Below are positions 11,456-51,566 of a stretch of DNA of 64,000 bases, one piece after another. The position numbers and the translations under genes are program-made. The DNA lies in NCBI RefSeq assembly GCF_024700885.2, contig NZ_CP117016.1; one strand, given 5' to 3'. The notes beneath the pieces are model-generated. The model was not told the origin of the DNA. It saw nothing but the letters and a program-made list of their open reading frames with translations, and ran no database searches. The DNA is from Escherichia coli (GTDB lineage: Bacteria > Pseudomonadota > Gammaproteobacteria > Enterobacterales > Enterobacteriaceae). Each line of letters starts with the position of its first letter. Position 1 is the stretch's first letter.

Positions 11456-11494
11456 TAAATATCTCGTTTTGCGCGATAATGTGCCGTAAGTCGG

Positions 11495-11800
11495 TTACAG
11501 CAGATCGGTATTCAGACCGGCGGCCTTTAACCGATGGGTTAAGTTACGCATTTTGCTGAATTCGGTACCGAGGCTCTGGTTCAGACCAGTGCCTTCGCAA
11601 AAGGCTTTTGCCGTAATGTGTTCCAGTTTGTCGGCATATTTAATCATTTGCAGGTGCAGCTCGACGGTGTACTGGTTACGAGGCGCACTGGAAAGTGCCT
11701 GCCGGATATGGCGATAAATCTCGTCTTCATTCATATTCATGGCAACCACTGGTATAATAGATAAGTTAGCTAAATTAGCTAAATGTGGTATCAGGTTCAA
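11495..11800 (-). CDS. Hypothetical small protein at the head of the hsd/darTG operon (80-101 aa)
   Basis: ORF immediately upstream of hsdM on the same strand (39-nt spacer); protein-like composition; internal Met (MNMNEDEIYRH...) is an alternative start; no family recognised. Confidence 0.4.
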   Translation of the reverse strand: MNLIPHLANLANLSIIPVVAMNMNEDEIYRHIRQALSSAPRNQYTVELHLQMIKYADKLEHITAKAFCEGTGLNQSLGTEFSKMRNLTHRLKAAGLNTDLL

Positions 11801-12015
11801 GAACTACAGTGGGAGTCGGATTTGACTGCGCGATTTATGCACGTAAATGCCTTGTGGCGGATTAATGGCCGCAGTATCTTCTCCTTCCGCGCCTGCAAAA
11901 TCAGGCGTCGGGATTAGCTTCCTGAAAACCGTTACAGGAGACTTCTCTATGACTACAATCCTTGTCCCTGACTGCGATTTACTCGATCTATTGTTCGTTT
12001 CCTTATAATGTCACT

Positions 12016-12270
12016 ATGGATTTCACCGCCTTGGTCGACAACTGCGCCCACTTCGTCGAATCCCTGATAGAAACCGAGGATCCCGCGCTGTGGCTTACCC
12101 TCTGCGGGCGACATTGTACTGCTGCAACCCACGCCGACCTCATCCCGCCGCATTTTACCGAAAGCCTGCTCAGTGATACTCTCCCCACCATGCCAGATCA
12201 GGTTATTTCTGAACCTGATTCTTGTGCGAATATTGCCTCGTGCGGGCTGTGCATCATCGCCGCTCTTTGA
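12016..12270 (+). CDS. Hypothetical small Cys-containing ORF (84 aa)
   Basis: ATG at 12016 preceded by TATAAT at 12004-12009; product MDFTALVDNCAHFVESL...PDSCANIASCGLCIIAAL; no family recognised; coding status uncertain. Confidence 0.25.
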   Translation: MDFTALVDNCAHFVESLIETEDPALWLTLCGRHCTAATHADLIPPHFTESLLSDTLPTMPDQVISEPDSCANIASCGLCIIAAL

Positions 12271-12732
12271 TAAGAGGCGTCAAAGGTAAGGGGCGTAGCG
12301 TTATTAGTTTGGGCTATACACTTGCGCTACAACTCTTCAAATAGCTATATATCAACAATATTTAGCCATAAACCGTCTACTTCCGTCTCAATTATACTCA
12401 AATTAAGGCATGCGGCATCTTTGTGACACATTTGTTTTTTTGATACAGGTTAGAGTTGACCTGCTCTCCGTTGATTAACTCACATTGTTGTTAACCACGT
12501 CTACTTTTAGCACGACACTGATGCGTTAACTGAGCGAATGGTCTGCTTTGAGCGAGGAACGGACATTACTAACAGCATTCTGTGTGAATCACCAGGGAGC
12601 AGGTCAGCGCCACTACTCTATATAATCGCTAACGATGACAAGTATAATTATATAAGTCTTTGCCCTTAGCTTTTGGATAAAATTGTTGAAGTTTCACGAA
12701 AATAATGATAAACAAAAACAGTAGCAATAATT

Positions 12733-13677
12733 ATGGATTTAATTATGGAATGGAGATTTTTAGGTTCTCTATCAGAGGCCAGGAAATCTGGCTGTAGCGG
12801 AGTTTATCTTATTGTCCATAAAGGACTTTTCAGTCGTGTGGTTTACGTTGGGGTAAGTTGTAATGTAGGTAGAAGGATAACCGAACATTACGACGGTTAT
12901 CTTAGAGGAAATCGAACAATTTACGACGCTGGTCACGACGAAGACGTTTATCGCTTCATGTCAGCTTATAAAATTCATAACCACACAAAATACTATCAAG
13001 CCTTGGCGAATGATTATAAGATATGGGCATCTACCACAATGTATTCTGATTTGCCGAAAAACATGCTAGCAAAAAGCCAAACCTTTGATACTGATTGGCA
13101 GAGCATTGCATTAGAAAAATATATTCCTCAACTGGTAGTATGGGCCCTTCCAATGGCAAAGTACTGTTATTCAAATGCAAGCAGGATTGAAAGTGTAATC
13201 CAATCAAAGCTCATTAAATCTTTTGATTTGAGAGGTTTTTTTAATATAAAGCAATTAAGCATATTGGGTAAAATTGAATATCCCTATATGGAAAAGGTCA
13301 AAGTTTTCATTATTAACACACCTGATTTAGACCCGGCATCCCAGCTTATTTTTAGCAATCTATATAACAAAAAAACTGATAACAACTTCTGTAAAGAGTT
13401 CCGTTCACAATTTAAAAGCGAGATTTTTCAGAGGGAAAGTGAAACTCAGAGAAAGCGAACTATCAGGGAGCATAAGGTATCTCTTTATGAAAATTATGGC
13501 AAGCCTTGGACTTTAAAGGAAATGGAAAAACTTAGAGTCATGCTTGTCGATTTTGATTTGTCCCCGATAGAAATATCTGAGTATCTAGGAAGAGAGCCGC
13601 GCTCTATATCTAAAAAAATAAGCGAAAATGATAAAGTTACTAATTATAAATGGCGAGAGAGCGTCGGCTGGTTGTGA
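12733..13677 (+). CDS. Hypothetical protein with GIY-YIG-like nuclease N-terminus and HTH-like C-terminus, in an AT-rich segment
   Basis: 314 aa; N-terminus GVYLIVHKGLFSRVVYVGVSCNVGRRITEH resembles the GIY...YIG...R...H core of GIY-YIG nucleases such as I-TevI; C-terminal ...WTLKEMEKLRVMLVDFDLSPIEISEYLGREPRSISKKI resembles a helix-turn-helix; flanked by ~400 bp of AT-rich non-coding DNA. Confidence 0.55.
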   Translation: MDLIMEWRFLGSLSEARKSGCSGVYLIVHKGLFSRVVYVGVSCNVGRRITEHYDGYLRGNRTIYDAGHDEDVYRFMSAYKIHNHTKYYQALANDYKIWASTTMYSDLPKNMLAKSQTFDTDWQSIALEKYIPQLVVWALPMAKYCYSNASRIESVIQSKLIKSFDLRGFFNIKQLSILGKIEYPYMEKVKVFIINTPDLDPASQLIFSNLYNKKTDNNFCKEFRSQFKSEIFQRESETQRKRTIREHKVSLYENYGKPWTLKEMEKLRVMLVDFDLSPIEISEYLGREPRSISKKISENDKVTNYKWRESVGWL

Positions 13678-13892
13678 CGTTACGTTTTGATTGAAATAAC
13701 CCCCATTTTGCAAAGTCCGCTCTTGGCACAGAGCGGACTGTCAGATGAGGTTTAGTTCTGTACTAATGAGCCGATACAAATTAGCTGCATATACCTGCAT
13801 TCCAAATAATTTTAGGCAGATATTATCTCCGTGAGTCCCCCGCCACTTTTCCGGTGCGCGGGGTTTTGTCTTTTTTCACCGGGAATACATGT

Positions 13893-14765
13893 ATGAATCC
13901 GTCTGATGCCATTGAGGCAATTGAAAAACCGCTCTCCTCCCTGCCTTACTCACTTTCCCGTCACATCCAGGAACATCTGCGCAAACTCACCAGTCACGAA
14001 CCCGTGATTGGCATTATGGGTAAAAGCGGGGCCGGTAAATCCTCACTCTGTAATGCACTGTTTCAGGGGGAGGTCACCCCGGTCAGTGATGTTCACGCCG
14101 GCACCCGGGAAGTGCGGCGCTTCCGTCTGAGTGGCCACGGTCACAGCATGATTATCACTGACCTGCCCGGGGTGGGCGAGAGCCGGGACAGGGATGCAGA
14201 GTATGAAGCCCTGTACCGTGACATTCTGCCTGAACTTGACCTGGTACTGTGGCTGATTAAAGCCGATGACCGTGCCCTGTCTGTGGATGAGTATTTCTGG
14301 CGACACATACTGCACCGGGGACATCAGCAGGTGCTGTTTGTGGTGACGCAGGCCGACAAAACGGAGCCCTGCCATGAATGGGATATGGCCGGCATTCAGC
14401 CTTCTCCCGCACAGGCACAGAACATTCGGGAGAAAACGGAGGCGGTATTCCGTCTGTTCCGGCCCGTACATCCGGTTGTTGCCGTATCGGCCCGCACCGG
14501 CTGGGAACTGGATACGCTGGTCAGTGCGCTAATGACAGCACTTCCCGACCATGCCGCCAGTCCCCTGATGACCCGCCTGCAGGACGAGCTGCGCACGGAA
14601 TCTGTCCGCGCTCAGGCCCGTGAACAGTTTACCGGTGCGGTGGACCGGATATTTGACACGGCGGAGAGCGTCTGTGTTGCCTCTGTTGCCCGTACGGTTC
14701 TGCGTGCCGTCCGTGACACGGTGGTCTCTGTTGCCCGCGCTGTATGGAACTGGATTTTCTTCTGA
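13893..14765 (+). CDS. yeeP: YeeP/YkfA/YfjP-family GTPase (CP4-type island gene)
   Basis: P-loop GIMGKSGAGKSS, G3 DLPG and TQADK G4 motifs; start placed at MNPSDAIEAIEK (13893) rather than the ORF-track start 13854. Confidence 0.85.
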   Translation: MNPSDAIEAIEKPLSSLPYSLSRHIQEHLRKLTSHEPVIGIMGKSGAGKSSLCNALFQGEVTPVSDVHAGTREVRRFRLSGHGHSMIITDLPGVGESRDRDAEYEALYRDILPELDLVLWLIKADDRALSVDEYFWRHILHRGHQQVLFVVTQADKTEPCHEWDMAGIQPSPAQAQNIREKTEAVFRLFRPVHPVVAVSARTGWELDTLVSALMTALPDHAASPLMTRLQDELRTESVRAQAREQFTGAVDRIFDTAESVCVASVARTVLRAVRDTVVSVARAVWNWIFF

Positions 14766-14879
14766 ACACTCTGCCAGGGGAAATGCCTGATTACATTGCG
14801 TTAACCAACTGAAAACATGATACAAACACTCCATCCCCCTCCTGTTTCTCTTGCGTGACTGCCCTGCTGTTAATAGAAT

Positions 14880-14925
14880 AAAACGATCGATAAAACAGGT
14901 ATCGATCGTTACCATCGATCGTTTA
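14880..14925 (+). promoter_or_regulatory. agn43 (flu) phase-variation switch: three closely spaced GATC Dam sites in the OxyR operator
   Basis: GATC at 14885-14888, 14904-14907 and 14917-14920, ~210 bp upstream of the Ag43 start, matching the known Dam/OxyR switch architecture. Confidence 0.75.
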
Positions 14926-15137
14926 TAGTGGTTAATGGTCTGCGAAAAGGCAGCTGAATCTCTTCATCATGCAGAACGGAATTGCACACAACGGACTGAT
15001 ACTTCTCTGGCGGATGAGAGAGGGGAAGCATTTATGTCCGGGAAAAACCACTTTATCTGACCATGCTGTTTTGTACCTGCCGGTATCCACATTTGTGGGT
15101 ACCGGCTTTTTTATTCACCCTCTGTAAGGAAAAGCTG

Positions 15138-17984
15138 ATGAAACGACATCTGAACACCAGCTACAGGCTGGTATGGAATCACATTACGGGCACCCTGGTG
15201 GTGGCTTCCGAACTGGCGCGCTCACGGGGAAAACGCACCGGTGTGGCGATTGCGCTGTCTCTTGCTGCTGTCACATCAGTTCCGGCACTGGCTGCTGACA
15301 CGGTTGTACAGGCGGGAGAAACCGTGAGCGGCGGAACACTGACAAATCATGACAACCAGATTGTTCTCGGTACGGCCAACGGAATGACCATCAGTACCGG
15401 TCTGGAGTATGGGCCGGATAACGAGGCCAATACCGGCGGGCAATGGATACAAAATGGCGGTATCGCCAACAACACTACTGTCACCGGTGGTGGTCTTCAG
15501 AGAGTGAATGCCGGAGGAAGCGTTTCAGACACGGTTATCAGTGCCGGAGGCGGACAGAGCCTTCAGGGGCAGGCAGTGAATACCACTCTGAACGGCGGTG
15601 AGCAGTGGGTACATGAAGGCGGGATTGCAACGGGTACCGTCATTAATGAGAAGGGCTGGCAGGCCGTCAAATCCGGCGCAATGGCAACCGACACGGTTGT
15701 GAATACCGGCGCGGAAGGGGGACCAGATGCAGAAAATGGTGATACCGGGCAGTTTGTTCGCGGAAATGCCGTACGTACCACCATCAATAAAAATGGTCGT
15801 CAGATTGTGGCTGTTGAAGGAACAGCAAATACCACTGTGGTTTATGCCGGCGGCGACCAGACGGTACACGGGCATGCGCTGGATACCACACTGAATGGCG
15901 GTTACCAGTATGTGCACAACGGAGGCACAGCCTCTGACACGGTTGTAAACAGTGACGGCTGGCAGATTGTCAAGGAAGGTGGTCTGGCGGATTTCACCAC
16001 CGTTAACCAGAAAGGCAAACTGCAGGTGAACGCCGGTGGTACAGCCACGAATGTCACCCTGAAACAGGGTGGAGCACTGGTCACCAGTACTGCGGCAACG
16101 GTTCTTGGCAGCAACCGTCTGGGCAATTTCACGGTGGAAAACGGTAAGGCTGACGGCGTTGTTCTGGAGTCCGGCGGTCGCCTGGATGTACTGGAAGGCC
16201 ATTCAGCGCAGAAAACACGGGTGGATGACGGCGGAACCCTGGCAGTGTCTGCCGGTGGTAAGGCAACAGATGTCACCATGACATCCGGTAGTGCCCTGAT
16301 TGCAGACAGTGGTGCCACTGTTGAGGGGACCAATGCCAGCGGTAAGTTCAGTATTGATGGCACATCCGGTCAGGCCAGCGGACTGCTGCTGGAAAATGGC
16401 GGCAGCTTTACGGTTAATGCCGGGGGACAGGCCAGCAACACCACTGTCGGACATCGTGGAACACTGATGCTGGCTGCCGGGGGAAGTCTGAGTGGCAGAA
16501 CACAGCTCAGTAAAGGCGCCAGCATGGTACTGAATGGTGATGTGGTCAGTACCGGCGATATTGTTAACGCAGGGGAGATTTACTTTGACAATCAGACAAC
16601 ACCGGATGCCGTACTGAGCCGTGCTGTTGCAAAAGGCGACTCCCCGGTAACGTTCCATAAACTGACAACCAGTAACCTCACCGGTCAGGGTGGCACCATC
16701 AATATGCGTGTTCGCCTTGATGGCAGCAATGCCTCTGACCAGCTGGTGATTAATGGTGGTCAGGCAACCGGCAAAACCTGGCTTGCGTTTACAAATGTCG
16801 GAAACAGCAACCTCGGGGTGGCAACCTCCGGACAGGGTATCCGGGTTGTGGATGCACAGAATGGCGCCACCACAGAAGAAGGTGCGTTTGCCCTGAGTCG
16901 CCCGCTTCAGGCCGGCGCCTTTAACTACACCCTGAACCGTGACAGCGATGAAGACTGGTACCTGCGCAGTGAAAATGCTTATCGTGCTGAAGTCCCCCTG
17001 TATACATCCATGCTGACACAGGCAATGGACTATGACCGGATTCTGGCAGGCTCCCGCAGCCATCAGACCGGTGTAAACGGTGAAAATAACAGCGTCCGTC
17101 TCAGCATTCAGGGCGGTCATCTCGGTCACGATAACAACGGCGGTATTGCCCGTGGAGCCACGCCGGAAAGCAGCGGCAGCTATGGCTTCGTCCGTCTGGA
17201 GGGTGACCTGCTCAGAACAGAGGTTGCCGGTATGTCTCTGACGACAGGGGTGTATGGTGCTGCAGGCCATTCTTCCGTTGATGTTAAGGATGATGACGGT
17301 TCCCGCGCCGGCACGGTCCGGGATGATGCCGGCAGCCTGGGCGGATACCTGAATCTGACACACACGTCCTCCGGCCTGTGGGCTGACATTGTGGCACAGG
17401 GAACCCGCCACAGCATGAAAGCGTCATCGGACAATAACGACTTCCGCGCCCGGGGCTGGGGCTGGCTGGGCTCACTGGAAACCGGTCTGCCCTTCAGTAT
17501 CACTGACAACCTGATGCTGGAGCCACAACTGCAGTACACCTGGCAGGGGCTCTCCCTGGATGACGGCCAGGATAACGCCGGTTATGTGAAGTTCGGGCAT
17601 GGCAGTACACAACATGTGCGTGCCGGCTTCCGTCTGGGCAGCCACAACGATATGACCTTTGGCGAAGGCACCTCATCCCGTGACACTCTGCGCGACAGTG
17701 CAAAACACCGTGTGAGTGAACTGCCGGTGAACTGGTGGGTACAGCCTTCTGTTATCCGCACTTTCAGCTCCCGGGGTGACATGAGCATGGGTACAGCCGC
17801 AGCCGGCAGTAACATGACGTTCTCACCCTCACAGAATGGCACATCACTGGACCTGCAGGCCGGACTGGAAGCCCGTGTCCGGGAAAATATCACCCTGGGC
17901 GTTCAGGCCGGTTATGCCCACAGCATCAACGGCAGCAGCGCTGAAGGTTATAGCAGTCAGGCCACGCTGAATGTGACCTTCTGA
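15138..17984 (+). CDS. flu: Antigen 43 self-associating autotransporter
   Basis: Signal peptide MKRHLNTSYRLVWNHITGTLVVASELARSRGKRTGVAIALSLAAVTSVPALA, repetitive passenger (…GGTA.NTT.N.GG.Q.V…) and C-terminal beta-barrel ending ...ATLNVTF. Confidence 0.9.
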   Translation: MKRHLNTSYRLVWNHITGTLVVASELARSRGKRTGVAIALSLAAVTSVPALAADTVVQAGETVSGGTLTNHDNQIVLGTANGMTISTGLEYGPDNEANTGGQWIQNGGIANNTTVTGGGLQRVNAGGSVSDTVISAGGGQSLQGQAVNTTLNGGEQWVHEGGIATGTVINEKGWQAVKSGAMATDTVVNTGAEGGPDAENGDTGQFVRGNAVRTTINKNGRQIVAVEGTANTTVVYAGGDQTVHGHALDTTLNGGYQYVHNGGTASDTVVNSDGWQIVKEGGLADFTTVNQKGKLQVNAGGTATNVTLKQGGALVTSTAATVLGSNRLGNFTVENGKADGVVLESGGRLDVLEGHSAQKTRVDDGGTLAVSAGGKATDVTMTSGSALIADSGATVEGTNASGKFSIDGTSGQASGLLLENGGSFTVNAGGQASNTTVGHRGTLMLAAGGSLSGRTQLSKGASMVLNGDVVSTGDIVNAGEIYFDNQTTPDAVLSRAVAKGDSPVTFHKLTTSNLTGQGGTINMRVRLDGSNASDQLVINGGQATGKTWLAFTNVGNSNLGVATSGQGIRVVDAQNGATTEEGAFALSRPLQAGAFNYTLNRDSDEDWYLRSENAYRAEVPLYTSMLTQAMDYDRILAGSRSHQTGVNGENNSVRLSIQGGHLGHDNNGGIARGATPESSGSYGFVRLEGDLLRTEVAGMSLTTGVYGAAGHSSVDVKDDDGSRAGTVRDDAGSLGGYLNLTHTSSGLWADIVAQGTRHSMKASSDNNDFRARGWGWLGSLETGLPFSITDNLMLEPQLQYTWQGLSLDDGQDNAGYVKFGHGSTQHVRAGFRLGSHNDMTFGEGTSSRDTLRDSAKHRVSELPVNWWVQPSVIRTFSSRGDMSMGTAAAGSNMTFSPSQNGTSLDLQAGLEARVRENITLGVQAGYAHSINGSSAEGYSSQATLNVTF

Positions 17985-18098: not shown

Positions 18099-20621
18099 GT
18101 GACTATGTTACAGATAGTCGGCGCGCTGATTCTGCTGATCGCAGGATTTGCCATTCTTCGCCTTTTGTTCAGAGCATTAACCAGCACAGCGTCTGCGCTG
18201 GCAGGGTTCGTATTGCTGTGTCTGTTCGGCCCGGCTTTACTGGCTGGCTATATCACTGAACGCATAACCCGGTTATTCCATATTCGCTGGCTGGCAGGCG
18301 TATTTCTGACGATTGCCGGAATGATTATCAGCTTCATGTGGGGACTTGATGGTAAACATATCGCACTGGAGGCTCATACTTTTGACTCTGTAAAATTTAT
18401 TCTGACCACCGCTCTCGCCGCTGGTCTGCTGGCTCTTCCCGTGCAGATAAGAACCATTCAGCAGAACGGGCTCACACCTGAAGATATCAGCAAGGAAATT
18501 AACGGGTATTACTGCTGTTTTTATACTGCTTTTTTCCTTATGGCGTGTTCTGCATACGCACCATTGATCGCATTGCAGTTCGATATTTCACCCTCACTGA
18601 TGTGGTGGGGCGGGTTGTTGTACTGGCTGGCTGCATTAGTGGCGCTGCTATGGGCGGCCAGCCAGATCCAGGCGCTGAAAAGACTGACCAGTGCCATCCG
18701 CCAGACACTGGAAGAACAACCGGTGCTCAACAGTAAATCGTGGCTGAGCAGTTTGCAAAACGATTACAGCCTTCCTGAAACGCTGACGGAGCGCATCTGG
18801 CTGACACTCATTTCACAACGGATTTCCCGGGGAGAACTGAGGGAATTTGAACTGGCAGACGGAAACTGGCTACTGGACAATGCCTGGTATGAAAGAAACA
18901 TGGCGGGTTTCAACGAAAAGCTGAGAGAGAGCCTGTCATTTACCCCTGATGAACTGAAAACCCTCTTCCGGAACCGCCTGAATTTATCACCGGAAGCGAA
19001 TGACGATTTTCTCGATCGTTGCCTGGACGGCGGTGACTGGTACCCCTTTTCAGAAGGCCGCCGTTTTGTATCATTCCACCACGTGGATGAGCTTCGTATC
19101 TGTGCCTCCTGCGGGCTGACAGAAGTACATCATGCCCCGGAAAATCATAAGCCGGATCCGGAATGGTACTGCTCCTCTCTTTGTCGCGAAACAGAAACAC
19201 TGTGTCAGGACATTTATGAACGTTCTTACACCGGTTTTATTTCCGATGCAACGGCGAATGGTCTGATTCTCATGAAACTGCCGGAAACCTGGAGTACAAA
19301 TGAGAAAATGTTTGCTTCCGGAGGGCAGGGACATGGGTTTGCCGCTGAACGGGGAAACCATATTGTCGACAGAGTCCGTCTGAAAAACGCACGGATCCTC
19401 GGTGATAATAATGCCAGAAATGGAGCAGACAGACTGGTCAGCGGAACAGAAATCCAGACGAAATATTGTTCAACTGCAGCCCGTAGCGTCGGTGCGGCAT
19501 TCGACGGACAAAACGGACAGTATCGTTACATGGGAAATCATGGTCCCATGCAACTGGAAGTCCCCCGTGATCAGTATGCCGGCGCTGTGGAAACCATGAA
19601 GAATAAGATCCGCGAAGGTAAAGTACCCGGTGTAACCGATCCCGCAGAAGCGTCCCGGCTGATTCGTCGGGGACATCTGACTTATACCCAGGCCCGTAAT
19701 ATCACCCGGTTCGGGACCATCGAATCGGTCACTTATGATATTGCCGAGGGGTCGGTTGTCAGTCTGGCGGCCGGAGGGATCAGTTTTGCCCTGACGGCAT
19801 CGGTCTTCTGGCTCAGCACCGGCGATCGCGATGCTGCCCTGCAGACAGCTGCTGTCCAGGCAGGAAAAACCTTCACCCGCACACTGGCTGTCTACGTCAC
19901 AACCCAGCAACTTCACCGGCTCAGTGTTGTTCAGGGTATGCTGAAGCATATTGATTTTTCGACGGCCAGCCCGACTGTCCGGCAGGCGCTTCAGAAGGGG
20001 ACCGGTGCAGGAAATATCAGTGCCCTGAACAAAGTGATGAAGGGTACGCTGGTGACATCTCTGGCACTGGTAGCTGTCACAACCGGCCCTGACATGATCA
20101 AAATGTTGCGGGGACGGATCTCCGGTGCGCAGTTCATCAGGAATCTTGCCGTGGCATCTTCCGGTGTGGCAGGTGGTGCTGTCGGGTCAGTGGCGGGCGG
20201 GATATTGTTCAGTCCACTGGGACCATTTGGTGCACTGACAGGGCGTGTGGTTGGCGGTGTTCTGGGGGGAATGATTGCCTCCGCTGTATCAGGAAAAATT
20301 GCCGGAGCGCTGGTTGAAGAAGATCGCGTCAAAATTCTGGCAATGATTCAGGAGCAGGTGACATGGCTTGCCGGCAGTTTCCTGCTGACCGGACATGAGA
20401 TTGAAAATCTGAACGAGAATCTGGCCCGTGTTATCGATCAGAATGCTCTGGAGATCATTTTCGCCGCCGGTATACAACAACGGGCCGCGACCAATATGTT
20501 AATCAAACCACTGGTGGTCAGTATCATCAGGCAACGCCCCGTCATGGAATATGATGCATCCCATCTCGGCAATATGGTTAACCGACTGGAAGAAGCATTA
20601 CCCCCGGAGTTACCGGCATAA
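18099..20621 (+). CDS. yeeR: YeeR-like inner-membrane protein, full length
   Basis: 840 aa; N-terminal hydrophobic helices, internal Cys cluster (CASCGL...CSSLC), C-terminal Gly-rich hydrophobic region; positioned after flu as in CP4-44. Confidence 0.65.
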   Translation: MTMLQIVGALILLIAGFAILRLLFRALTSTASALAGFVLLCLFGPALLAGYITERITRLFHIRWLAGVFLTIAGMIISFMWGLDGKHIALEAHTFDSVKFILTTALAAGLLALPVQIRTIQQNGLTPEDISKEINGYYCCFYTAFFLMACSAYAPLIALQFDISPSLMWWGGLLYWLAALVALLWAASQIQALKRLTSAIRQTLEEQPVLNSKSWLSSLQNDYSLPETLTERIWLTLISQRISRGELREFELADGNWLLDNAWYERNMAGFNEKLRESLSFTPDELKTLFRNRLNLSPEANDDFLDRCLDGGDWYPFSEGRRFVSFHHVDELRICASCGLTEVHHAPENHKPDPEWYCSSLCRETETLCQDIYERSYTGFISDATANGLILMKLPETWSTNEKMFASGGQGHGFAAERGNHIVDRVRLKNARILGDNNARNGADRLVSGTEIQTKYCSTAARSVGAAFDGQNGQYRYMGNHGPMQLEVPRDQYAGAVETMKNKIREGKVPGVTDPAEASRLIRRGHLTYTQARNITRFGTIESVTYDIAEGSVVSLAAGGISFALTASVFWLSTGDRDAALQTAAVQAGKTFTRTLAVYVTTQQLHRLSVVQGMLKHIDFSTASPTVRQALQKGTGAGNISALNKVMKGTLVTSLALVAVTTGPDMIKMLRGRISGAQFIRNLAVASSGVAGGAVGSVAGGILFSPLGPFGALTGRVVGGVLGGMIASAVSGKIAGALVEEDRVKILAMIQEQVTWLAGSFLLTGHEIENLNENLARVIDQNALEIIFAAGIQQRAATNMLIKPLVVSIIRQRPVMEYDASHLGNMVNRLEEALPPELPA

Positions 20622-21152: not shown

Positions 21153-21483
21153 TCCCTGAAGTCAGTTTCATGCTTCAGCCTCTGCCACAACGTATGGCAG
21201 AGGCTATTTATCAGGAGAAACCAGATATGCCGGGTTACACACAGAGTATGTCCTGGCTGAAGGATCTTTCTCATACGGGCAGACGGTGGCTGTCACAACA
21301 GCTTACCTTAATGTGCTTATTGAAGATGACCAGGTGCGCACTTCCGGCTGGTTATCCGCAACGCGGAAGGTCAGCGACGCTGGCGCTGCCGGAATACTGA
21401 ACCCTGTGCCGGAAAGCAGCTTAATGCGTGGCTCGCCAGTGAAGGGCTTCTCAGACAATAAACGTCATTGATTTCGTCCATCA

Positions 21484-21515
21484 GGCCGCGTCTTCTCCGG
21501 GAGACGCGGCTTTTT
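21484..21515 (+). terminator. Rho-independent terminator-like hairpin
   Basis: GCCGCGTCT ... AGACGCGGC stem followed by TTTTTT (21510-21515). Confidence 0.45.
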
Positions 21516-21561: not shown

Positions 21562-22383
21562 ATGCGATTAGCCAGTCGTTTTGGTTATGCTGCAAACCAG
21601 ATACGCCGTGACCGTCCACTGACACATGAAGAGCTGATGCACCATGTGCCGGGGATTTTCGGGGAAGATAAACACACGTCCCGAAGCCAGAACTATACGT
21701 ACATCCCCACCATCACCGTGCTGGAAAGTCTGCAGCGGGAAGGCTTCCAGCCATTCTTCGCCTGCCAGACCCGTGTGCGCGACCCGGGCCGTCGGGGATA
21801 CACAAAACACATGCTGCGTCTGCGGCGGGCCGGAGAGATAAACGGAGAACATGTCCCTGAAATTATTCTGCTCAACTCTCATGACGGTACCTCCAGCTAC
21901 CAGATGCTGCCGGGTTACTTCAGGTTCGTCTGCCAGAACGGGTGCGTCTGTGGTCAGTCTCTGGGGGAAGTGCGTGTTCCGCACCGGGGAAATGTAGTGG
22001 AGAAAGTTATCGAAGGGGCTTACGAGGTGGTGGGGGTTTTTGACCGGATAGAGGAGAAGCGTGATGCCATGCAGTCGCTGGTCCTGCCGCCACCGGCACG
22101 CCAGGCGCTGGCACAGGCGGCACTGACTTACCGTTATGGTGACGAACATCAGCCCGTCACCACCGCCGACATTCTGACGCCACGACGCCGGGAGGATTAC
22201 GGAAAGGACCTGTGGAGTGCTTATCAGACCATCCAGGAGAATATGCTGAAAGGGGGGATTTCCGGTCGCAGTGCCAGAGGAAAACGTATCCACACCCGTG
22301 CCATTCACAGCATCGACACCGACATTAAGCTCAACCGCGCATTGTGGGTGATGGCTGAAACGCTGCTGGAGAGTATGCGCTGA
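21562..22383 (+). CDS. DUF932-family protein (YfjQ/YafZ-like)
   Basis: 273 aa; position and sequence character match the DUF932 genes of CP4-type islands. Confidence 0.7.
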   Translation: MRLASRFGYAANQIRRDRPLTHEELMHHVPGIFGEDKHTSRSQNYTYIPTITVLESLQREGFQPFFACQTRVRDPGRRGYTKHMLRLRRAGEINGEHVPEIILLNSHDGTSSYQMLPGYFRFVCQNGCVCGQSLGEVRVPHRGNVVEKVIEGAYEVVGVFDRIEEKRDAMQSLVLPPPARQALAQAALTYRYGDEHQPVTTADILTPRRREDYGKDLWSAYQTIQENMLKGGISGRSARGKRIHTRAIHSIDTDIKLNRALWVMAETLLESMR

Positions 22384-22474
22384 TGCCGTTTCCCTGAAAG
22401 CGCAGTTCTGACTCACGTCTGTCCCTTCCCCCGGGATTTCTTCCATTCATTTACTTTTTATAAGGAATAATCTC

Positions 22475-22960
22475 ATGACAACCGTCTTGCATAATTCCAC
22501 CACTCCTTCTGTTTCCGTAACCGCTGCATCAGGGAATGACCAGCCTCAGCTGGTTGCCACCATAGTCCCTGATGAACAGCGCATCAGCTTCTGGCCGCAG
22601 CACTTTGGCCTCATTCCACAGTGGGTGGCCCTGGAGCCCCGTGTCTTCGGCTGGATGGACCGTCTGTGTGAAGACTACTGCGGTGGTATCTGGAATCTGT
22701 ACACCCTGAACAACGGCGGGGCATTTATGGCACCCGAACCGGATGACGATGATGACGAAACATGGGTACTGTTCAATGCCATGAACGGTAACCGCGCTGA
22801 AATGAGCCCGGAAGCCGCCGGCATTGCTGCCTGTCTGATGACGTACAGCCATCATGCCTGTCGTACGGAGTGTTATGCCATGACGGTCCATTATTACCGG
22901 TTGCGGGATTACGCCCTGCAGCATCCGGAATGCAGCGCCATTATGCGCATCATCGACTGA
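22475..22960 (+). CDS. Anti-restriction protein (ArdB/KlcA family, YfjX/YafX-like)
   Basis: 161 aa; acidic DDDDDE stretch and ...FGWMDRLCEDYCGGIWNLYTLNNGGAFMAP... typical of this family; position upstream of the radC-like gene. Confidence 0.75.
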   Translation: MTTVLHNSTTPSVSVTAASGNDQPQLVATIVPDEQRISFWPQHFGLIPQWVALEPRVFGWMDRLCEDYCGGIWNLYTLNNGGAFMAPEPDDDDDETWVLFNAMNGNRAEMSPEAAGIAACLMTYSHHACRTECYAMTVHYYRLRDYALQHPECSAIMRIID

Positions 22961-23452
22961 ATGGAGAGAAGCACAATGCAACAGCTTTCCTTTCTGCCCG
23001 GAGAGATGACGCCCGGCGAGCGCAGTCTCATTCTGCGGGCCCTGAAAACTCTGGACCGCCATCTTCATGAACCCGGCGTGGCCTTCACCTCCACCCGTGC
23101 GGCACGGGAATGGCTGATTCTGAACATGGCGGGACTGGAGCGTGAAGAATTCCGGGTGCTGTATCTGAATAACCAGAATCAACTGATTGCCGGTGAAACC
23201 CTCTTCACCGGCACCATCAACCGCACGGAAGTCCATCCCCGGGAAGTGATTAAACGCGCCCTGTACCACAATGCCGCTGCCGTGGTGCTGGCGCACAATC
23301 ACCCGTCCGGTGAAGTCACACCCAGCAAGGCAGACCGCCTTATCACGGAACGTCTGGTACAGGCACTGGGCCTGGTGGATATCCGGGTGCCGGACCATCT
23401 GATAGTCGGTGGCAACCAGGTTTTCTCCTTTGCCGAACATGGTCTGCTTTAA
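22961..23452 (+). CDS. yeeS: RadC-like JAB-domain protein (YeeS/YfjY/YkfG family)
   Basis: JAMM motif HNHPSGEVTPSKAD; alternative start at 22976 (MQQLSFLPGE). Confidence 0.85.
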   Translation: MERSTMQQLSFLPGEMTPGERSLILRALKTLDRHLHEPGVAFTSTRAAREWLILNMAGLEREEFRVLYLNNQNQLIAGETLFTGTINRTEVHPREVIKRALYHNAAAVVLAHNHPSGEVTPSKADRLITERLVQALGLVDIRVPDHLIVGGNQVFSFAEHGLL

Positions 23453-23514
23453 CCCGTCACAACCACATCACACCTGTTTTCACTTTTATCTTCTGTCTTC
23501 AGAGGTATCACATC

Positions 23515-23736
23515 ATGAGAATCATCACCCGTGGTGAAGCCATGCGTATTCACCAACAGCATCCTGCATCCCGTCTTTTTCCGTTCTGTACCGGTAAGTA
23601 TCGCTGGCACGGCAGTGCTGAAGCGTATACTGGTCGTGAAGTGCAGGATATTCCCGGCGTTCTTGCCGTGTTTGCAGAACGCCGTAAGGACAGTTTTGGC
23701 CCGTATGTCCGGCTGATGAGTGTCACCCTGAACTGA
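23515..23736 (+). CDS. yeeT: YeeT-family small protein (DUF987)
   Basis: 73 aa; position between radC-like gene and cbeA. Confidence 0.7.
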   Translation: MRIITRGEAMRIHQQHPASRLFPFCTGKYRWHGSAEAYTGREVQDIPGVLAVFAERRKDSFGPYVRLMSVTLN

Positions 23737-23898
23737 TGTTCCGTCACCCGGGAAACGAGTACGACCAGATGACCTCAGACGCCGCTGTGGATGAGGCCAT
23801 TCTCATCAATGCATACATCTTCACCGAAACCGGTCAGCGCGCCGGCTGACCTGTCATCGTTAAACCATTCTTAACCACTTTTCAGAGAGGATTTTATC

Positions 23899-24273
23899 GT
23901 GTCAGACAAACTCTCCGGGATAACTCATCCCGATGACAATCACGACCGCCCCTGGTGGGGGCTTCCCTGCACAGTGAGGCCCTGTTTTGGCGCTCGTCTG
24001 GTGCAAGAGGGTAACCGCCTGCATTACCTTGCCGACCGCGCCGGTATCAGAGGCCGCTTCAGCGACGCAGATGCATACCATCTGGACCAGGCCTTTCCGC
24101 TGCTGATGAAACAACTGGAACTCATGCTCACCAGCGGTGAACTGAATCCCCGATATCAGCATACCGTCACGCTGTATGCAAAAGGGCTGACCTGCGAAGC
24201 CGACACCCTCGGCTCCTGTGGTTACGTTTATCTGGCTGTTTATCCGACACCAGCACCCGCAACCACCTCATAA
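23899..24273 (+). CDS. cbeA: CbeA (YeeU) type IV antitoxin
   Basis: 124 aa, ...[34 protein letters not shown]...; immediately upstream of cbtA. Confidence 0.85.
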
Positions 24274-24319: not shown

Positions 24320-24694
24320 ATGAAAACATTATCCGACACACATGTACGGGAGGTATCTCGCTGCCCGTCTCCCGTCACCATCTGGCAGACACTGCTCATC
24401 CGACTGCTGGACCAGCATTATGGCCTCACACTGAATGACACACCGTTTGCCGATGAACGTGTGATTGAGCAGCATATTGAGGCAGGCATTTCACTGTGTG
24501 ATGCAGTTAATTTTCTCGTGGAAAAATACGCGCTGGTGCGTACCGACCAGCCGGGATTCAGCACCTGTCCCCGCTCTCAGTTAATAAACAGTATTGATAT
24601 CCTCCGGGCTCGCCGGGCGACCGGCCTGATGACCCGCGACAATTACAGAACGGTAAATAACATTACCCTGGGTAAGTATCCGGAGGCGAAATGA
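24320..24694 (+). CDS. cbtA: CbtA (YeeV) type IV toxin (cytoskeleton-targeting)
   Basis: 124 aa [26 protein letters not shown]...; ATG at 24320 preferred over the ORF-track start 24218. Confidence 0.85.
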
Positions 24695-25182
24695 TGAAAC
24701 TGGCCCTGACACTGGAAGCCGACAGCGTTAACGTACAGGCACTGAACATGGGGCGCATTGTCGTTGACGTCGATGGTATTGAGCTCGCTGAACTGATTAA
24801 CATGGTCTGCGATAACGGCTACTCCCTTCGTGTTGTTGATGAATCTGACCAGACCTCAGCAGAATGCACGCCACCATTTGCTACCCTTACCGGCATACGC
24901 TGCAGTACCGCACATATCACGGAAACGGACAACGCCTGGTTGTACTCGCTGTCACACCAGACCAGTGACTTCGGTGAATCAGAATGGATTCATTTTACAG
25001 GTAGCGGATATCTGTTACGTACCGATGCGTGGTCATACCCGGTTCTGCGGCTTAAACGCCTGGGGCTGTCAAAAACGTTCCGTCGTCTGGTCGTCACACT
25101 CATCCGGCGTTATGGCGTCAGTCTCATTCATCTGGATGCCAGCGCTGAATGCCTGCCGGGTTTACCCACTTTCGACTGGTAA
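24691..25182 (+). CDS. yeeW: YeeW-family protein
   Basis: 163 aa, start overlaps the cbtA stop by 4 nt. Confidence 0.65.
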
Positions 25183-25193
25183 CCAGGAACAAC

Positions 25194-25391
25194 ATGAAAT
25201 CATTAACCACGGAAACAGCGCTGGATATTCTGATTGCGTGGCTGCAGGACAATATCGACTGCGGATCGGGAATTATCTTTGACAACGATGAGGATAAAAC
25301 GGATTCAGCAGCACTGTTGCCCTGTATCGAACAGGCCCGGGAGGATGTCCGTACCCTGCGTCATCTGCAGCTTCTGCACCAGAACCGGTGA
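25194..25391 (+). CDS. Hypothetical small protein (65 aa)
   Basis: MKSLTTETALDILIAWLQDN...; start placed at internal Met of ORF-track ORF 25149-25391. Confidence 0.45.
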   Translation: MKSLTTETALDILIAWLQDNIDCGSGIIFDNDEDKTDSAALLPCIEQAREDVRTLRHLQLLHQNR

Positions 25392-25475
25392 AGCTCACTC
25401 ACCAGACTTCATTCCTCTGACGCCAGCCTGCACAGGGCTGGCGTTTTCATTTATCTGCAAAAAGGAATATCGATT

Positions 25476-26318
25476 ATGTCAGATATCACAATCTCCCGTC
25501 CGGAAGTGGTCAACGGGCATACGGACGTTATCTGCTCAACCAGCATTCGCCACATTCTGGCTGTACGAAAGAGTACACTGTTGCAAATCGACACACTTAT
25601 CCGACAACTGGCTGAAATCTCGGTGCTGACGGAAAGCATCGGAGGTAAAACTGCCCCGGACTGGGCCATGAAACAGGATTTTCGCTGCGGCTGCTGGCTG
25701 ATGGAGAAACCCGAAACAGCAATGAAAGCCATTACCCGGAATCTTGATCGCGAAATCTGGCGTGACCTGATGCAACGTTCCGGGATGCTGTCATTAATGG
25801 ATACGCAGGCCCGTGATACATGGTACCGGTCACTGGAGTACGATAATTTTCCGGAAATCAGCGAAGCGAACATTCTGAGCACATTTGAACAACTGCACCA
25901 GAATAAGGATGAGGTGTTTGAGCGAGGGGTGATCAACGTCTTCAGAGGGCTGAACTGGAATTACAAAACCAATTGCCCCTGTAAATTTGGCAGTAAAATT
26001 ATCGTCAACAATCTGGTGAGATGGGACCGGTGGGGATTTCATCTTATCACCGGACAACAGGCTGACCGACTCGCCGATCTGGAAAGAATGTTGCACCTGT
26101 TCAGCGGTAAACCAATCCCCGACAACCGGGGAAACATCACCCTTCGTCTGGATGATCACATTCAGTCTGTTCAGGGTAAAGAGAGCTATGAAGATGAGAT
26201 GTTCAGCATCAGATACTTTAAGAAGGGCTCCGCGCATATCACGTTCAGAAAACCAGAACTGGTTGACAGACTGAATGATATTATCGCAAAACACTATCCT
26301 GATATGCTGGCAGTATAG
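25476..26318 (+). CDS. Hypothetical protein (280 aa), last island gene before the tRNA
   Basis: Long ORF with protein-like composition; no motif recognised. Confidence 0.6.
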   Translation: MSDITISRPEVVNGHTDVICSTSIRHILAVRKSTLLQIDTLIRQLAEISVLTESIGGKTAPDWAMKQDFRCGCWLMEKPETAMKAITRNLDREIWRDLMQRSGMLSLMDTQARDTWYRSLEYDNFPEISEANILSTFEQLHQNKDEVFERGVINVFRGLNWNYKTNCPCKFGSKIIVNNLVRWDRWGFHLITGQQADRLADLERMLHLFSGKPIPDNRGNITLRLDDHIQSVQGKESYEDEMFSIRYFKKGSAHITFRKPELVDRLNDIIAKHYPDMLAV

Positions 26319-26467: not shown

Positions 26468-26555
26468 TGGCGGTGAGGGGGGGATTCGAACCCCCGATAC
26501 GTTGCCGTATACACACTTTCCAGGCGTGCTCCTTCAGCCACTCGGACACCTCACC
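26468..26555 (-). tRNA. serX: tRNA-Ser (anticodon GGA), serX-like
   Basis: Reverse complement reads GGTGAGGTGTCCGAGTGGCTGAAGGAGCACGCCTGGAAAGTGTG...GGGGGTTCGAATCCCCCCCTCACCGCCA: long variable arm, T-loop GGTTCGAATCC, CCA end, GGA anticodon. Confidence 0.95.
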
Positions 26556-32099: not shown

Positions 32100-32853
32100 G
32101 ATGAAACCCCGCTTTTTTTATTGATCGCACACCTGACAGCTGCCTCTAAAATAGAAGCACCAGAAGTACTGACAGATGTTGCACTGCTGTGTGTAGTAAT
32201 AAATCAGCCCTAAATGGGTAAAATATAAAACTAATGGATTACATCTGATTTCAATCTAGCCATTACAAATCTTAAATCAAGTGTTAAACATGTAACTAAA
32301 TGTAACTCGTTATATTAAAATGTTAATCTTAAGGTTTTATTAAGTTTAGAAATGATAGAAAAGTTGTACATTTGGTTTTTATTGCACAATTTTAAAAAAT
32401 CATACAAATGGTGCTAACTTACTAATAATGCATATAAAAAATATTTCGGTGTAGTCCTTTCGTCATGTAAAACGTTCTTGTTTTTTCTTCACACCTCCGT
32501 GGACAATTTTTTACTGCAAAAAGACGAGGTTTGTCACGGCTTGTGCGCAAGACATATCGCAGCAATCAGCGACGGGCAAGAAGAATGGCTGTCTGGTGAT
32601 TTTTGATTGCGGAAAACGGAGATTTAAAAGAAAACAAAATATTTTTTTGCGTAGATAACAGCGTATTTACGTGGGTTTTAATACTTTGGTATGAACAAAA
32701 AAAGAAAAATACAACGCGCGGGTGAGTTATTAAAAATATTTCCGCAGACATACTTTCCATCGTAACGCAGCGTTAACAAAATACAGGTTGCGTTAACAAC
32801 CAAGTTGAAATGATTTAATTTCTTAAATGTACGACCAGGTCCAGGGTGACAAC
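32100..32853. promoter_or_regulatory. csgD-csgB divergent intergenic regulatory region (754 bp, AT-rich)
   Basis: 754-bp non-coding AT-rich segment between divergent csgD and csgB starts, matching the known curli control region; individual binding sites not mapped here. Confidence 0.7.
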
Positions 32854-38129: not shown

Positions 38130-42312
<4,183 letters not shown>

Positions 42313-42322
42313 AAACGTAGTT

Positions 42323-42416
42323 GCCTGATGAGCTACGCTTATCAGGCCTACATCGCTCCTGCAATATGTTGATTTTGCAAGATTTTGTAGGTCGGATAAG
42401 GCGTTCACGCCACATC
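42323..42416. repeat. REP/BIME element (two inverted REP copies)
   Basis: GCCTGATGAGCTACGCTTATCAGGCCTACA and GTAGGTCGGATAAGGCGTTCACGCCACATC, classic REP consensus in opposite orientations. Confidence 0.8.
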
Positions 42417-42442
42417 TGGCAAAAACAACGAGCCAATAAAAA

Positions 42443-42467
42443 TACCGGCGTTATGCCGGTATTTTTT
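42443..42467 (+). terminator. Rho-independent terminator downstream of opgH
   Basis: TACCGGC-GTTAT-GCCGGTA hairpin followed by TTTTTT. Confidence 0.7.
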
Positions 42468-42483
42468 ACGGAAGAGGTATCAA

Positions 42484-42711
42484 ATGCGTTTAATTGTGGT
42501 GAGCATCATGGTGACCTTGCTGAGTGGCTGTGGCAGCATTATTAGTCGCACTATACCGGGGCAGGGGCATGGCAACCAATATTATCCCGGTGTGCAATGG
42601 GATGTGCGTGACTCCGCCTGGCGTTATGTCACGATCCTTGATCTGCCATTCTCCCTGGTTTTTGATACTTTACTGCTGCCGATCGACATTCATCATGGCC
42701 CGTATGAGTGA
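42484..42711 (+). CDS. yceK: Lipoprotein YceK
   Basis: 75 aa, lipobox LLSGC. Confidence 0.9.
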   Translation: MRLIVVSIMVTLLSGCGSIISRTIPGQGHGNQYYPGVQWDVRDSAWRYVTILDLPFSLVFDTLLLPIDIHHGPYE

Positions 42712-51515: not shown

Positions 51516-51566
51516 TAATCTCTATGCTCCGGCTGAAGGGATGTTTTTGCCGGACACAAAGGATAA

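Follow-up and report, generated by a model that had tools for sequence, protein, structure and literature searches.

The locus described here raises the question of whether an anti-restriction gene and a restriction system carried on one genomic island act as a pair, or are neighbors because of the way such islands are built. The window, i.e. the whole 64,000-nucleotide stretch of DNA that was analyzed, is entirely Escherichia coli chromosome. On its plus strand, positions 22475–22960 encode a 161 amino acid protein of the ArdB/KlcA anti-restriction family. In the same island of approximately 80 kb, there is a restriction-modification (RM) system of type I, with 11,020 bp between the starts of hsdM and ardB. 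A first-pass annotation, made from the sequence alone, had pointed to both of these and had suggested that the island may modulate its own or the host's restriction during transfer.

The assignment of the open reading frame at 22475–22960 to ArdB/KlcA is well founded. The open reading frame is intact in the window list of open reading frames, starts with ATG, and has an AAGGA ribosome-binding site 9 nt 5′ of the start. In RefSeq the identical sequence is labeled “antirestriction protein” (WP_000214307.1). The Pfam profile PF03230 (Antirestrict) gives E = 2.5e-37 and 127.4 bits, where the curated cut-off is 25, and the match covers profile positions 1–92 of 92 and ArdB residues 66–161. A PDB sequence search shows 2WJ9, the ArdB of E. 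coli CFT073, with E = 2.5e-98, and residues 25–161 of the window protein are identical to it at 135 of 137 positions (98.5%). KlcA from pBP136 (2KMG) aligns over the entire domain (E = 7.8e-21). From these alignments we infer that the window ArdB has the ArdB/KlcA fold seen in 2WJ9 and 2KMG. The calculated mass of 18.15 kDa and pI of 4.64 describe a small acidic protein, as expected of this family of proteins with about 134–160 aa and a pI of about 4.6–5.0, whose published members show pI values of 4.64–5.05 (PMC2836571). A scan of ArdB against NCBIfam gave no match. PADLOC also gave no match to ArdB, but its models are for defence and not anti-defence, so that the blank is uninformative.

The C-terminal end of the window protein, ...MRIID161, aligns with ...YRAID142 of KlcA, and the terminal Asp is conserved. 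It is invariant in all six E. coli ArdB alleles compared: the window allele, three from other islands that bear the type I cassette found here (termed RRDM, see below), and yfjX and yafX of K-12. In the same six alleles the core of the gene (residues 26–161) displays dN/dS values of 0.05–0.14, with dS up to 1.5–2.5, and the first ~25 residues show near-neutral evolution. These ratios show strong purifying selection on the ardB core and hence maintained function. A decaying relic is excluded, since with a core dN/dS of 0.05–0.14 the gene is being kept for function. Two antisense open reading frames on the minus strand, one over ardB and radC (positions 22529–23440) and one over the adjoining DUF932 gene (positions 21568–22446), were rejected as shadow open reading frames because they have no Pfam match and because purifying selection is on the plus-strand frame. 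The ardB gene is single-copy in the ~80-kb island, and a 3.8-kb module around it is present with 100% identity in many RefSeq genomes.

The closest characterized relative is ArdB-CFT, which is ORF14 of PAI II in uropathogenic E. coli CFT073 (the protein of the 2WJ9 structure). It shares island context, size and acidity with the window ArdB. The two differ in the first ~24 residues and in chain length (157 aa compared with 161 aa in the window), and there are two substitutions in the core, with A52 and D67 in the window protein being T and N, respectively, in ArdB-CFT. YfjX (also termed LfgA, in CP4-57) and YafX (in CP4-6) of K-12 are paralogous backbone genes of 152 aa, with a core dN to the window ArdB of about 0.13–0.17 and a saturated dS; their gene order, DUF932...ardB-radC-DUF987-antitoxin-toxin, is that of the window. 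KlcA (IncP-1 pBP136) and plasmid ArdB proteins (pKM101, R64) have the Pfam family, the fold and the terminal Asp in common with the window protein. However, they are found in plasmid leading or kil-kor regions, are 141–142 aa in length and do not have a variable N-terminal extension, and KlcA is distant in sequence.

The first-pass annotation had also described ArdB/KlcA proteins as inhibitors of type I restriction, and this agrees with the literature. Serfiotis-Mitsa et al. expressed ArdB-CFT, YafX, YfjX and two KlcA proteins at a low level, and all five relieved the restriction that EcoKI (IA), EcoAI (IB), EcoR124I (IC) and StySBLI (ID) impose on unmodified lambda (PMC2836571). For ArdB-CFT the relief was 710-fold with EcoKI, 54-fold with EcoAI, 199-fold with EcoR124I and 1174-fold with StySBLI; over ArdB-CFT, YafX and YfjX it ranged in vivo from about 10- to 9250-fold, and anti-modification was weak (PMC2836571). 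With the proteins in purified form there was no inhibition of EcoKI in vitro (PMC2836571). Purified BlihIA of Bacillus is fully inhibited in vitro by a 30-fold molar excess of ArdB(R64), and this requires D141, i.e. ArdB(R64) without its terminal Asp gives no inhibition (PMC12429846). In the plasmid-borne group the restriction activity is inhibited and not the modification, and ArdB(R64) acts directly on the purified enzyme. After treatment with 2-aminopurine, KlcA protects a clpX mutant from self-restriction by EcoKI, and since such a mutant is rescued, the effect is not mediated by ClpXP. The recognition sequence makes no difference to ArdB action, and BREX and type III systems are unaffected. 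With a core 98.5% identical to that of ArdB-CFT, the window ArdB is most likely a functional inhibitor of type I cleavage that largely spares methylation. The first-pass annotation had proposed measuring the effect of the protein on EcoKI and on the restriction system of the island itself; the EcoKI half of this experiment has essentially been done in the literature, on the near-identical ArdB-CFT (PMC2836571).

The type I system that accompanies ardB is, by gene content and order, an RRDM cassette (RptR-HsdM-HsdS-DarT-DarG-HsdR-M48), as found in EPEC E2348/69 and described by Zhang et al. 2025 (PMC12255303). All of its genes are on the minus strand. rptR (positions 11495–11734) encodes the 79 amino acid RRDM repressor (PF24718 HTH_73, E = 1.7e-28; 96.2% identical to EPEC RptR), and hsdM (positions 9017–11455) encodes a long-form type I methyltransferase of 811 aa (PF02384, E = 6.7e-104, together with HsdM_N; 97.7% identity to EPEC). 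hsdS (positions 7683–9017) has two target-recognition domains by Pfam and PADLOC. It is followed by the DarTG2 toxin-antitoxin pair, darT (positions 7014–7670; PF14487, E = 3e-53, and PADLOC; 98.6% identity) and darG (positions 5950–7017; Macro domain, E = 2.8e-21, and PADLOC; 100% identity), which is embedded between hsdS and hsdR. hsdR (positions 2836–5931) encodes 1031 aa with HSDR_N, SWI2_SNF2 and T1R_D3 domains and a PADLOC REase_I match (99.6% identity), and the last RRDM gene (positions 2120–2836) encodes an M48/YgjP-like metallopeptidase (PF01863, E = 1.3e-61; 99.6% identity). rptR and the M48 gene thus flank the system; like darTG, they went unmentioned in the first-pass annotation. 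The earlier statement that a complete type I system lies ~11 kb from ardB in the same island is confirmed: hsdM, hsdS and hsdR are intact, without internal stop codons, and have full-length PADLOC matches (MTase_I 1–811/810, Specificity_I 8–444/443, REase_I 2–1006/1034).

Between the window and EPEC E2348/69 the order of the seven genes is conserved and identities are 96.2%–100%, with the exception of HsdS (39%). Because of this low HsdS identity, the window HsdS is expected to have a recognition sequence other than that of EPEC. The promoter with TAGCTA operators is common to both; the window has two RptR operator repeats (positions 11767–11781, minus strand), EPEC has three, and two TAGCTA sites are enough for RptR repression (PMC12255303). 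The flanking DNA differs between the two strains, and ardB is 17.4 kb downstream in EPEC. The EPEC cassette, expressed from its own promoter on pBR322 in DH5alpha, lowers the plating of T7 by 10^3, lambda-vir by ~10^4 and phage Trib by 10^7; hsdM is induced 15-fold upon infection, and hsdMSR or darTG2 placed behind an unrepressed RRDM promoter proved toxic and could not be cloned (PMC12255303). ArdB is not mentioned in that paper (Zhang et al. 2025, PMC12255303). The nearest solved relative of the window RRDM enzyme is EcoR124 (HsdM 1e-64, HsdR 3e-35), and EcoKI is more distant. Going by these similarities, the enzyme is of a long-HsdM lineage that is distant from the families tested with ArdB.

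The island is a CP4-like island, of the CP4-6/CP4-57 type, integrated at a tRNA gene. It has a tyrosine integrase, a direct repeat of the tRNA attachment site, and the backbone GTPase...DUF932-ArdB-RadC-DUF987-CbeA-CbtA. The attachment site is a tRNA-Ser(GGA) gene at positions 26468–26555 on the minus strand (ARAGORN and Rfam), and it is serX because ghrA-ycdXYZ-csg follows it on that flank. In the best-matching genome, MLI114, the island is ~80 kb and ends at an intact tyrosine integrase adjoining phoH, and the 3′-terminal 19 nt of the tRNA (positions 26468–26486 of the window) are repeated beside this integrase. YfjI/Gp2-type genes are found at the integrase end of the island as well. The possibility that this is not a single element, since the integrase is away from the tRNA, was rejected: CP4-6 has the same layout, with the tRNA at the toxin end as in the window island, and the 19-nt repeat is beside the integrase.

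Within this island the RRDM cassette and the backbone are separated by an AT-rich variable cargo segment (positions 11735–13853, 40.8% GC), which contains a gene of the GIY-YIG nuclease family (positions 12733–13677, plus strand). The conserved backbone starts downstream of this slot with a YeeP/YfjP-like GTPase gene and an Ag43/Cah autotransporter gene (positions 13893–17984, plus strand).

The specificity of the pairing was examined by comparing other genomes. Of 5,426 complete E. coli genomes, 5,020 carry the ardB module, which occurs at 15,524 places in all, with a median of three per genome. The RRDM block is found in 271 of the 5,426, with a coverage of at least 80% in 247. Approximately 1.6% of the ardB modules adjoin RRDM. 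Five RRDM contexts were opened (MLI114, E2348/69, O157 644-PT8, AMA1167 and 88-3493), and all five have ardB 11–17 kb downstream, measured from hsdM to ardB. The order is the same in each: M48-hsdR-darG-darT-hsdS-hsdM-rptR, a variable stretch, and then GTPase-(Ag43/Cah)-...-DUF932-ardB-radC-cbeA-cbtA, with a truncated AIDA-repeat remnant in the Ag43/Cah position in E2348/69. In other strains the same 25 kb is located at serW. From rptR to the GTPase gene the DNA is different in each of the strains compared; where the window has the GIY-YIG gene, others display ParA with unknown genes, a dGTPase with a recombinase, or IS elements. The O157 island has Zorya further upstream.

Of eight modules chosen without regard to hsd genes (six at descending similarity, and those of the two K-12 islands), one has a type I system no more than 20 kb away. 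In K-12 the equivalent cargo slot of CP4-57 carries abpAB and rnlAB, and that of CP4-6 has no annotated defence genes; neither island has a type I system, unlike the window island. In strain ET826, the source of that one module, an EcoR124-family (IC) hsdMSR is directly upstream of the GTPase gene, in the same slot as RRDM. Its HsdM scores 1147 bits to the EcoR124II M subunit and is 31% identical to the window HsdM. A query of the ET826 hsd genes plus GTPase gene yielded 360 genomes with at least 80% coverage, which is an upper bound, as hsd alone reaches that coverage. The ArdB allele WP_000214398.1 is found beside RRDM in E2348/69 and also in an O157:H7 serW island, where there is no RRDM within 20 kb. 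ardB is intact in all of the RM-bearing islands examined, and the islands compared show no sign of co-adaptation of ardB and RM genes and none of conflict-driven loss.

The co-location of ardB with RRDM is above chance, yet it appears from these comparisons to be architectural, i.e. a backbone ardB together with defence cargo, and not a co-adapted pair. Co-residence is ordinary because RRDM occupies the variable cargo slot of an island that has ardB in its backbone. The suggestion that the island modulates its own restriction is not favored by the comparative data, which argue against a dedicated ardB-hsd pairing, since ardB is at ~15,500 places and the cassette in ~250 genomes, the DNA between them is variable, and one allele occurs with and without the cassette. 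At the same time, the proximity of RRDM to ardB in all five contexts and the presence of a second type I family in the slot may reflect some functional benefit of pairing ardB with type I systems.

Such a benefit could arise if ArdB were an establishment factor for the RRDM cassette of its own island, with the pairing functional and selected. On entry into a naive host without RptR there would be a burst of RRDM expression, and ArdB would transiently block cleavage by HsdR while HsdM and HsdS methylate the chromosome, thereby averting lethal self-restriction. The known inhibition of restriction and not of modification fits this scheme, as do the rescue of the clpX mutant by KlcA, the toxicity of hsdMSR and darTG2 behind the unrepressed promoter, the placement of RRDM 11–17 kb upstream of ardB in all five contexts, and the independent type IC system in the same slot. 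We nevertheless regard it as unlikely. The small fraction of ardB modules adjoining RRDM, the single type I system near eight unselected modules, the identical ArdB allele with and without RRDM, and the variable DNA between cassette and ardB all speak against it. In addition, plasmid-borne RRDM establishes in DH5alpha without added ArdB, RRDM brings its own controller, RptR, and restriction alleviation through ClpXP is available to type I systems (PMC12255303). Taming of RRDM by ArdB on entry could still occur as a by-product.

A wider form of this idea joins ArdB and RRDM into one functional circuit. ArdB would on entry stop cleavage by the type I enzymes of the recipient and of the island itself while methylation continues, and DarTG2 would perhaps be a guard against inhibition of the RM system. 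A comparable arrangement is that of EcoprrI-PrrC-Stp, where a suicide module is inside a type I hsd operon and inhibition of the RM enzyme by an anti-restriction peptide of a phage sets the nuclease of the module free. The placement of darTG between hsdS and hsdR in the window is like that of the suicide module in the EcoprrI-PrrC hsd operon. If such a circuit exists, a toxic cassette could establish safely, and the island must then hold its own ArdB tightly silent. Taken as a whole, the circuit has a small probability.

The genetic setting of ardB was analyzed as well. ardB is the first gene of an ardB-radC-DUF987-cbeA-cbtA block on the plus strand. Upstream of it is a DUF932 (YfjQ/YafZ-like) gene (positions 21562–22383; PF06067, E = 3.4e-52), and in the 91-bp gap between the two a terminator-like site was not found. 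A strong terminator-like hairpin with a 13-bp stem and a T-run (positions 21483–21512, plus strand) lies upstream of the DUF932 gene and ends the unit before it. Downstream of ardB is a gene for a RadC-like JAB protein, the homolog of YeeS/YfjY (= LfgB protease), at positions 22976–23452 according to the RefSeq start (PF04002, E = 8.4e-45); its open reading frame is open from position 22961 and so abuts the ardB stop codon. It is followed by a DUF987 (YeeT/YpjJ-like) gene (positions 23515–23736; PF06174, E = 7.8e-40), a CbeA/YeeU-family type IV antitoxin gene (positions 23899–24273; PF06154, E = 9.8e-55) and a CbtA-family type IV toxin gene (positions 24320–24694; PF06755, E = 5.7e-61). DUF5983, DUF957 and DUF4942 genes (positions 24691–26318, plus strand) make up the distal end of the CP4-like backbone. 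A scan for sigma-70 promoters gave one site in the region, where 2.7 are expected by chance, and nothing convincing as a promoter of ardB or of the DUF932 gene. Rfam displayed no RNA element near ardB; its hits were an IS102-type RNA upstream of Ag43, the tRNA, and core-genome sRNAs.

The K-12 operon homologous to the ardB block, yfjX-yfjY-ypjJ-yfjZ-ypjF, has been renamed lfgABCDE; it is repressed by MqsA and is induced by H2O2 only in subpopulations or single cells, and its RadC-like member, LfgB, is a protease (PMC10846083). K-12 derivatives with native yafX and yfjX show strong EcoKI restriction (vector control, PMC2836571), and in such derivatives the cloned RRDM restricts by 10^3–10^7 (PMC12255303). 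ardB would normally be kept low, because K-12 with its native yafX and yfjX restricts and because lfgABCDE is MqsA-repressed. Expression of the integrated ardB is by this reasoning low or heterogeneous, and resident restriction would not be disabled.

The same K-12 data could be read to mean that ardB has been domesticated in a host stress operon of the lfgABCDE type and has no restriction role in situ, with anti-restriction being an ancestral property that is seen on artificial expression only. MqsA repression and H2O2 induction in single cells would be in accordance with this, deletion of lfgB or polar insertions in lfgA lead to stress sensitivity (PMC10846083), and purifying selection in long-resident “cryptic” islands fits a benefit to the host. 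But the phenotype is complemented by LfgB and not by LfgA (PMC10846083), the C-terminal Asp needed for anti-restriction is invariant, and the family is typical of plasmids and the leading regions of ICEs. The MqsA site was mapped in the upstream region of CP4-57 and has no counterpart here, where ardB begins 91 bp after the DUF932 gene. Domestication of this kind is rather improbable. It may be added that the phenotypes of the K-12 operon are stress-related and not restriction-related, which counts against the explanation we prefer, given below.

With regard to movement, the annotation of the island shows no relaxase or type IV secretion system gene. According to a 2026 preprint, related serW/serX islands (the O157 TAI islands) are predicted oriT-only conjugative hitchers; among the defence and anti-defence cargo of oriT-only islands it finds genes for anti-restriction, RM and orphan methylases most often (bioRxiv 10.64898/2026.01.13.699239). 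By analogy, the window island probably moves as a conjugative hitcher. The likely moment of ArdB action is horizontal transfer, because integrase and att repeats of the island are intact and present, respectively, and because its relatives are predicted hitchers. That ArdB is instead a donor effector, delivered in trans into recipients by a co-resident conjugative type IV secretion system to protect the transferred DNA, is highly improbable: Cre fusions of YfjX and of the CP4-module antitoxins CbeA, YagB and YfjZ belong to a set of 32 chromosomal proteins that the F-like pED208 system translocates, but translocation is rare (1e-7 to 1e-5 per donor), the screen yielded YfjX a single time, and deletion of yfjX in the donor left the recipient SOS response unchanged.

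The explanation that we consider probable as a whole is that ArdB is a backbone protein that protects incoming DNA and is silent when integrated, with RRDM being cargo of the slot. ardB would be a conserved backbone gene of CP4-like tRNA-integrated islands, and RRDM would sit in the cargo slot between integrase-proximal genes and the GTPase gene. When expressed, ArdB would block type I DNA cleavage whatever the recognition sequence and leave methylation largely intact. During horizontal transfer the incoming DNA, perhaps the island itself, would be shielded from the type I enzymes of the recipient, and in the integrated state ardB would be mostly silent, as an inducible transfer or stress gene. 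The identity and intactness of the gene, the purifying selection on it, and the architecture and recurrence of the island are observed here. The activities of the near-identical protein and of the RRDM cassette are taken from the literature, and the timing of expression, the role in transfer and the sensitivity of RRDM to ArdB are inferred. Of the alternatives offered by the first-pass annotation, i.e. effects on the restriction of the island itself or on that of the host, shielding of the incoming island from recipient type I enzymes is the most plausible role.

Islands that carry defence and anti-defence genes together are known in Pseudomonas, and the oriT-only islands of Enterobacteria are similar. 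They likewise have restriction against rivals and an inhibitor of the recipient's restriction. The window island differs in that the known target class of its inhibitor is the class of the co-carried system. For a near-identical protein, the gene, structure and activity have been in print since 2010, the type I/DarTG cassette was characterized in 2025, and the joint carriage of restriction and anti-restriction genes by islands is an already reported general pattern. The finding made at this locus is thus correct and ordinary.

The type I system at window positions 2120–11785 is the seven-gene RRDM cassette (RptR-HsdM-HsdS-DarT-DarG-HsdR-M48), already published with EPEC E2348/69 as the reference (PMC12255303). 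DarTG2 is placed inside it, with hsdS on one side and hsdR on the other. The promoter displays two TAGCTA RptR operators, whereas the EPEC reference has three. The HsdM and HsdR sequences show 98%–99.6% identity to those of EPEC, but HsdS (hsdS, positions 7683–9017) has an identity of only 39%. Across strains, at least five distinct hsdS alleles are paired with the same M and R genes; sequence comparisons thus point to frequent specificity switching in RRDM.

A different type I system is found in the comparison island of E. coli ET826 (locus L011), a tRNA-Ile island. EcoR124-family (type IC) hsdMSR genes at L011 positions 9272–16455 occupy the slot that holds RRDM in the window and share its orientation; they lie immediately upstream of the island's GTPase gene. 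An intact ardB is situated about 5.6 kb from these genes, and the IC restriction family is known to be inhibited by ArdB homologues.

Between RRDM and the island backbone there is an AT-rich variable slot, where a gene of the GIY-YIG nuclease family (314 aa, positions 12733–13677, + strand) is present. It is labelled "hypothetical" in E. coli RefSeq entries, and PADLOC gave no match for it. Members of this family are conserved at 40%–99% identity in Enterobacterales, Vibrio, Aeromonas and other bacteria; the Brenneria homologue is in an ICE-like region adjoining an ArdC-type gene, and the Vibrio homologues are within a series of small genes, all on one strand. It is possible that this gene represents a single-gene defence or addiction cassette.

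In the backbone, an Rfam match to an IS102-type sRNA (72 bits; positions 14883–15119, + strand) falls within the leader region upstream of the Ag43/Cah autotransporter gene. The gene between Ag43 and IrmA (positions 18099–20621, + strand) encodes an 840-aa protein with no Pfam domain; it is kept in several islands, and others carry a dynamin-RdcB-patatin trio instead. The DUF905 gene (positions 21227–21461, + strand), just upstream of a terminator hairpin, is frameshifted according to the annotation of matching RefSeq genomes; the backbone genes on either side are intact. Two minus-strand open reading frames, one of 303 aa antisense to ardB/radC (positions 22529–23440) and one of 292 aa antisense to DUF932 (positions 21568–22446), were rejected as genes and are regarded as shadow open reading frames because neither has a family match and selection is on the sense frame.

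One boundary of the island, on the toxin-antitoxin side, is the intact serX tRNA, whose 3′ end carries the att core (positions 26468–26486); the other, next to the integrase, is a 19-nt copy of that 3′ end. At the integrase end (locus L005, positions 42263–42545) a segment of about 100 bp is duplicated, the copies being about 180 bp apart; it starts inside the att-core copy (CCCTCACCGCCA…). The right end of the island is also present at serW in other strains. Outside the island, the Rfam hits to the sRNAs ES056 (positions 32155–32246, upstream of csgD) and ES036 (CssrF; positions 42344–42386) and to the PyrC leader (positions 51516–51565) are usual core-genome features of the E. coli chromosome here.

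An F-like type IV secretion system is reported to translocate 32 chromosomal proteins, four of which (YfjX, CbeA, YagB and YfjZ) are encoded by CP4-like modules. The window counterpart of these is the region at positions 22475–24273. Products of CP4-like modules are over-represented among the translocated proteins, a point apparently absent from discussion in the literature.
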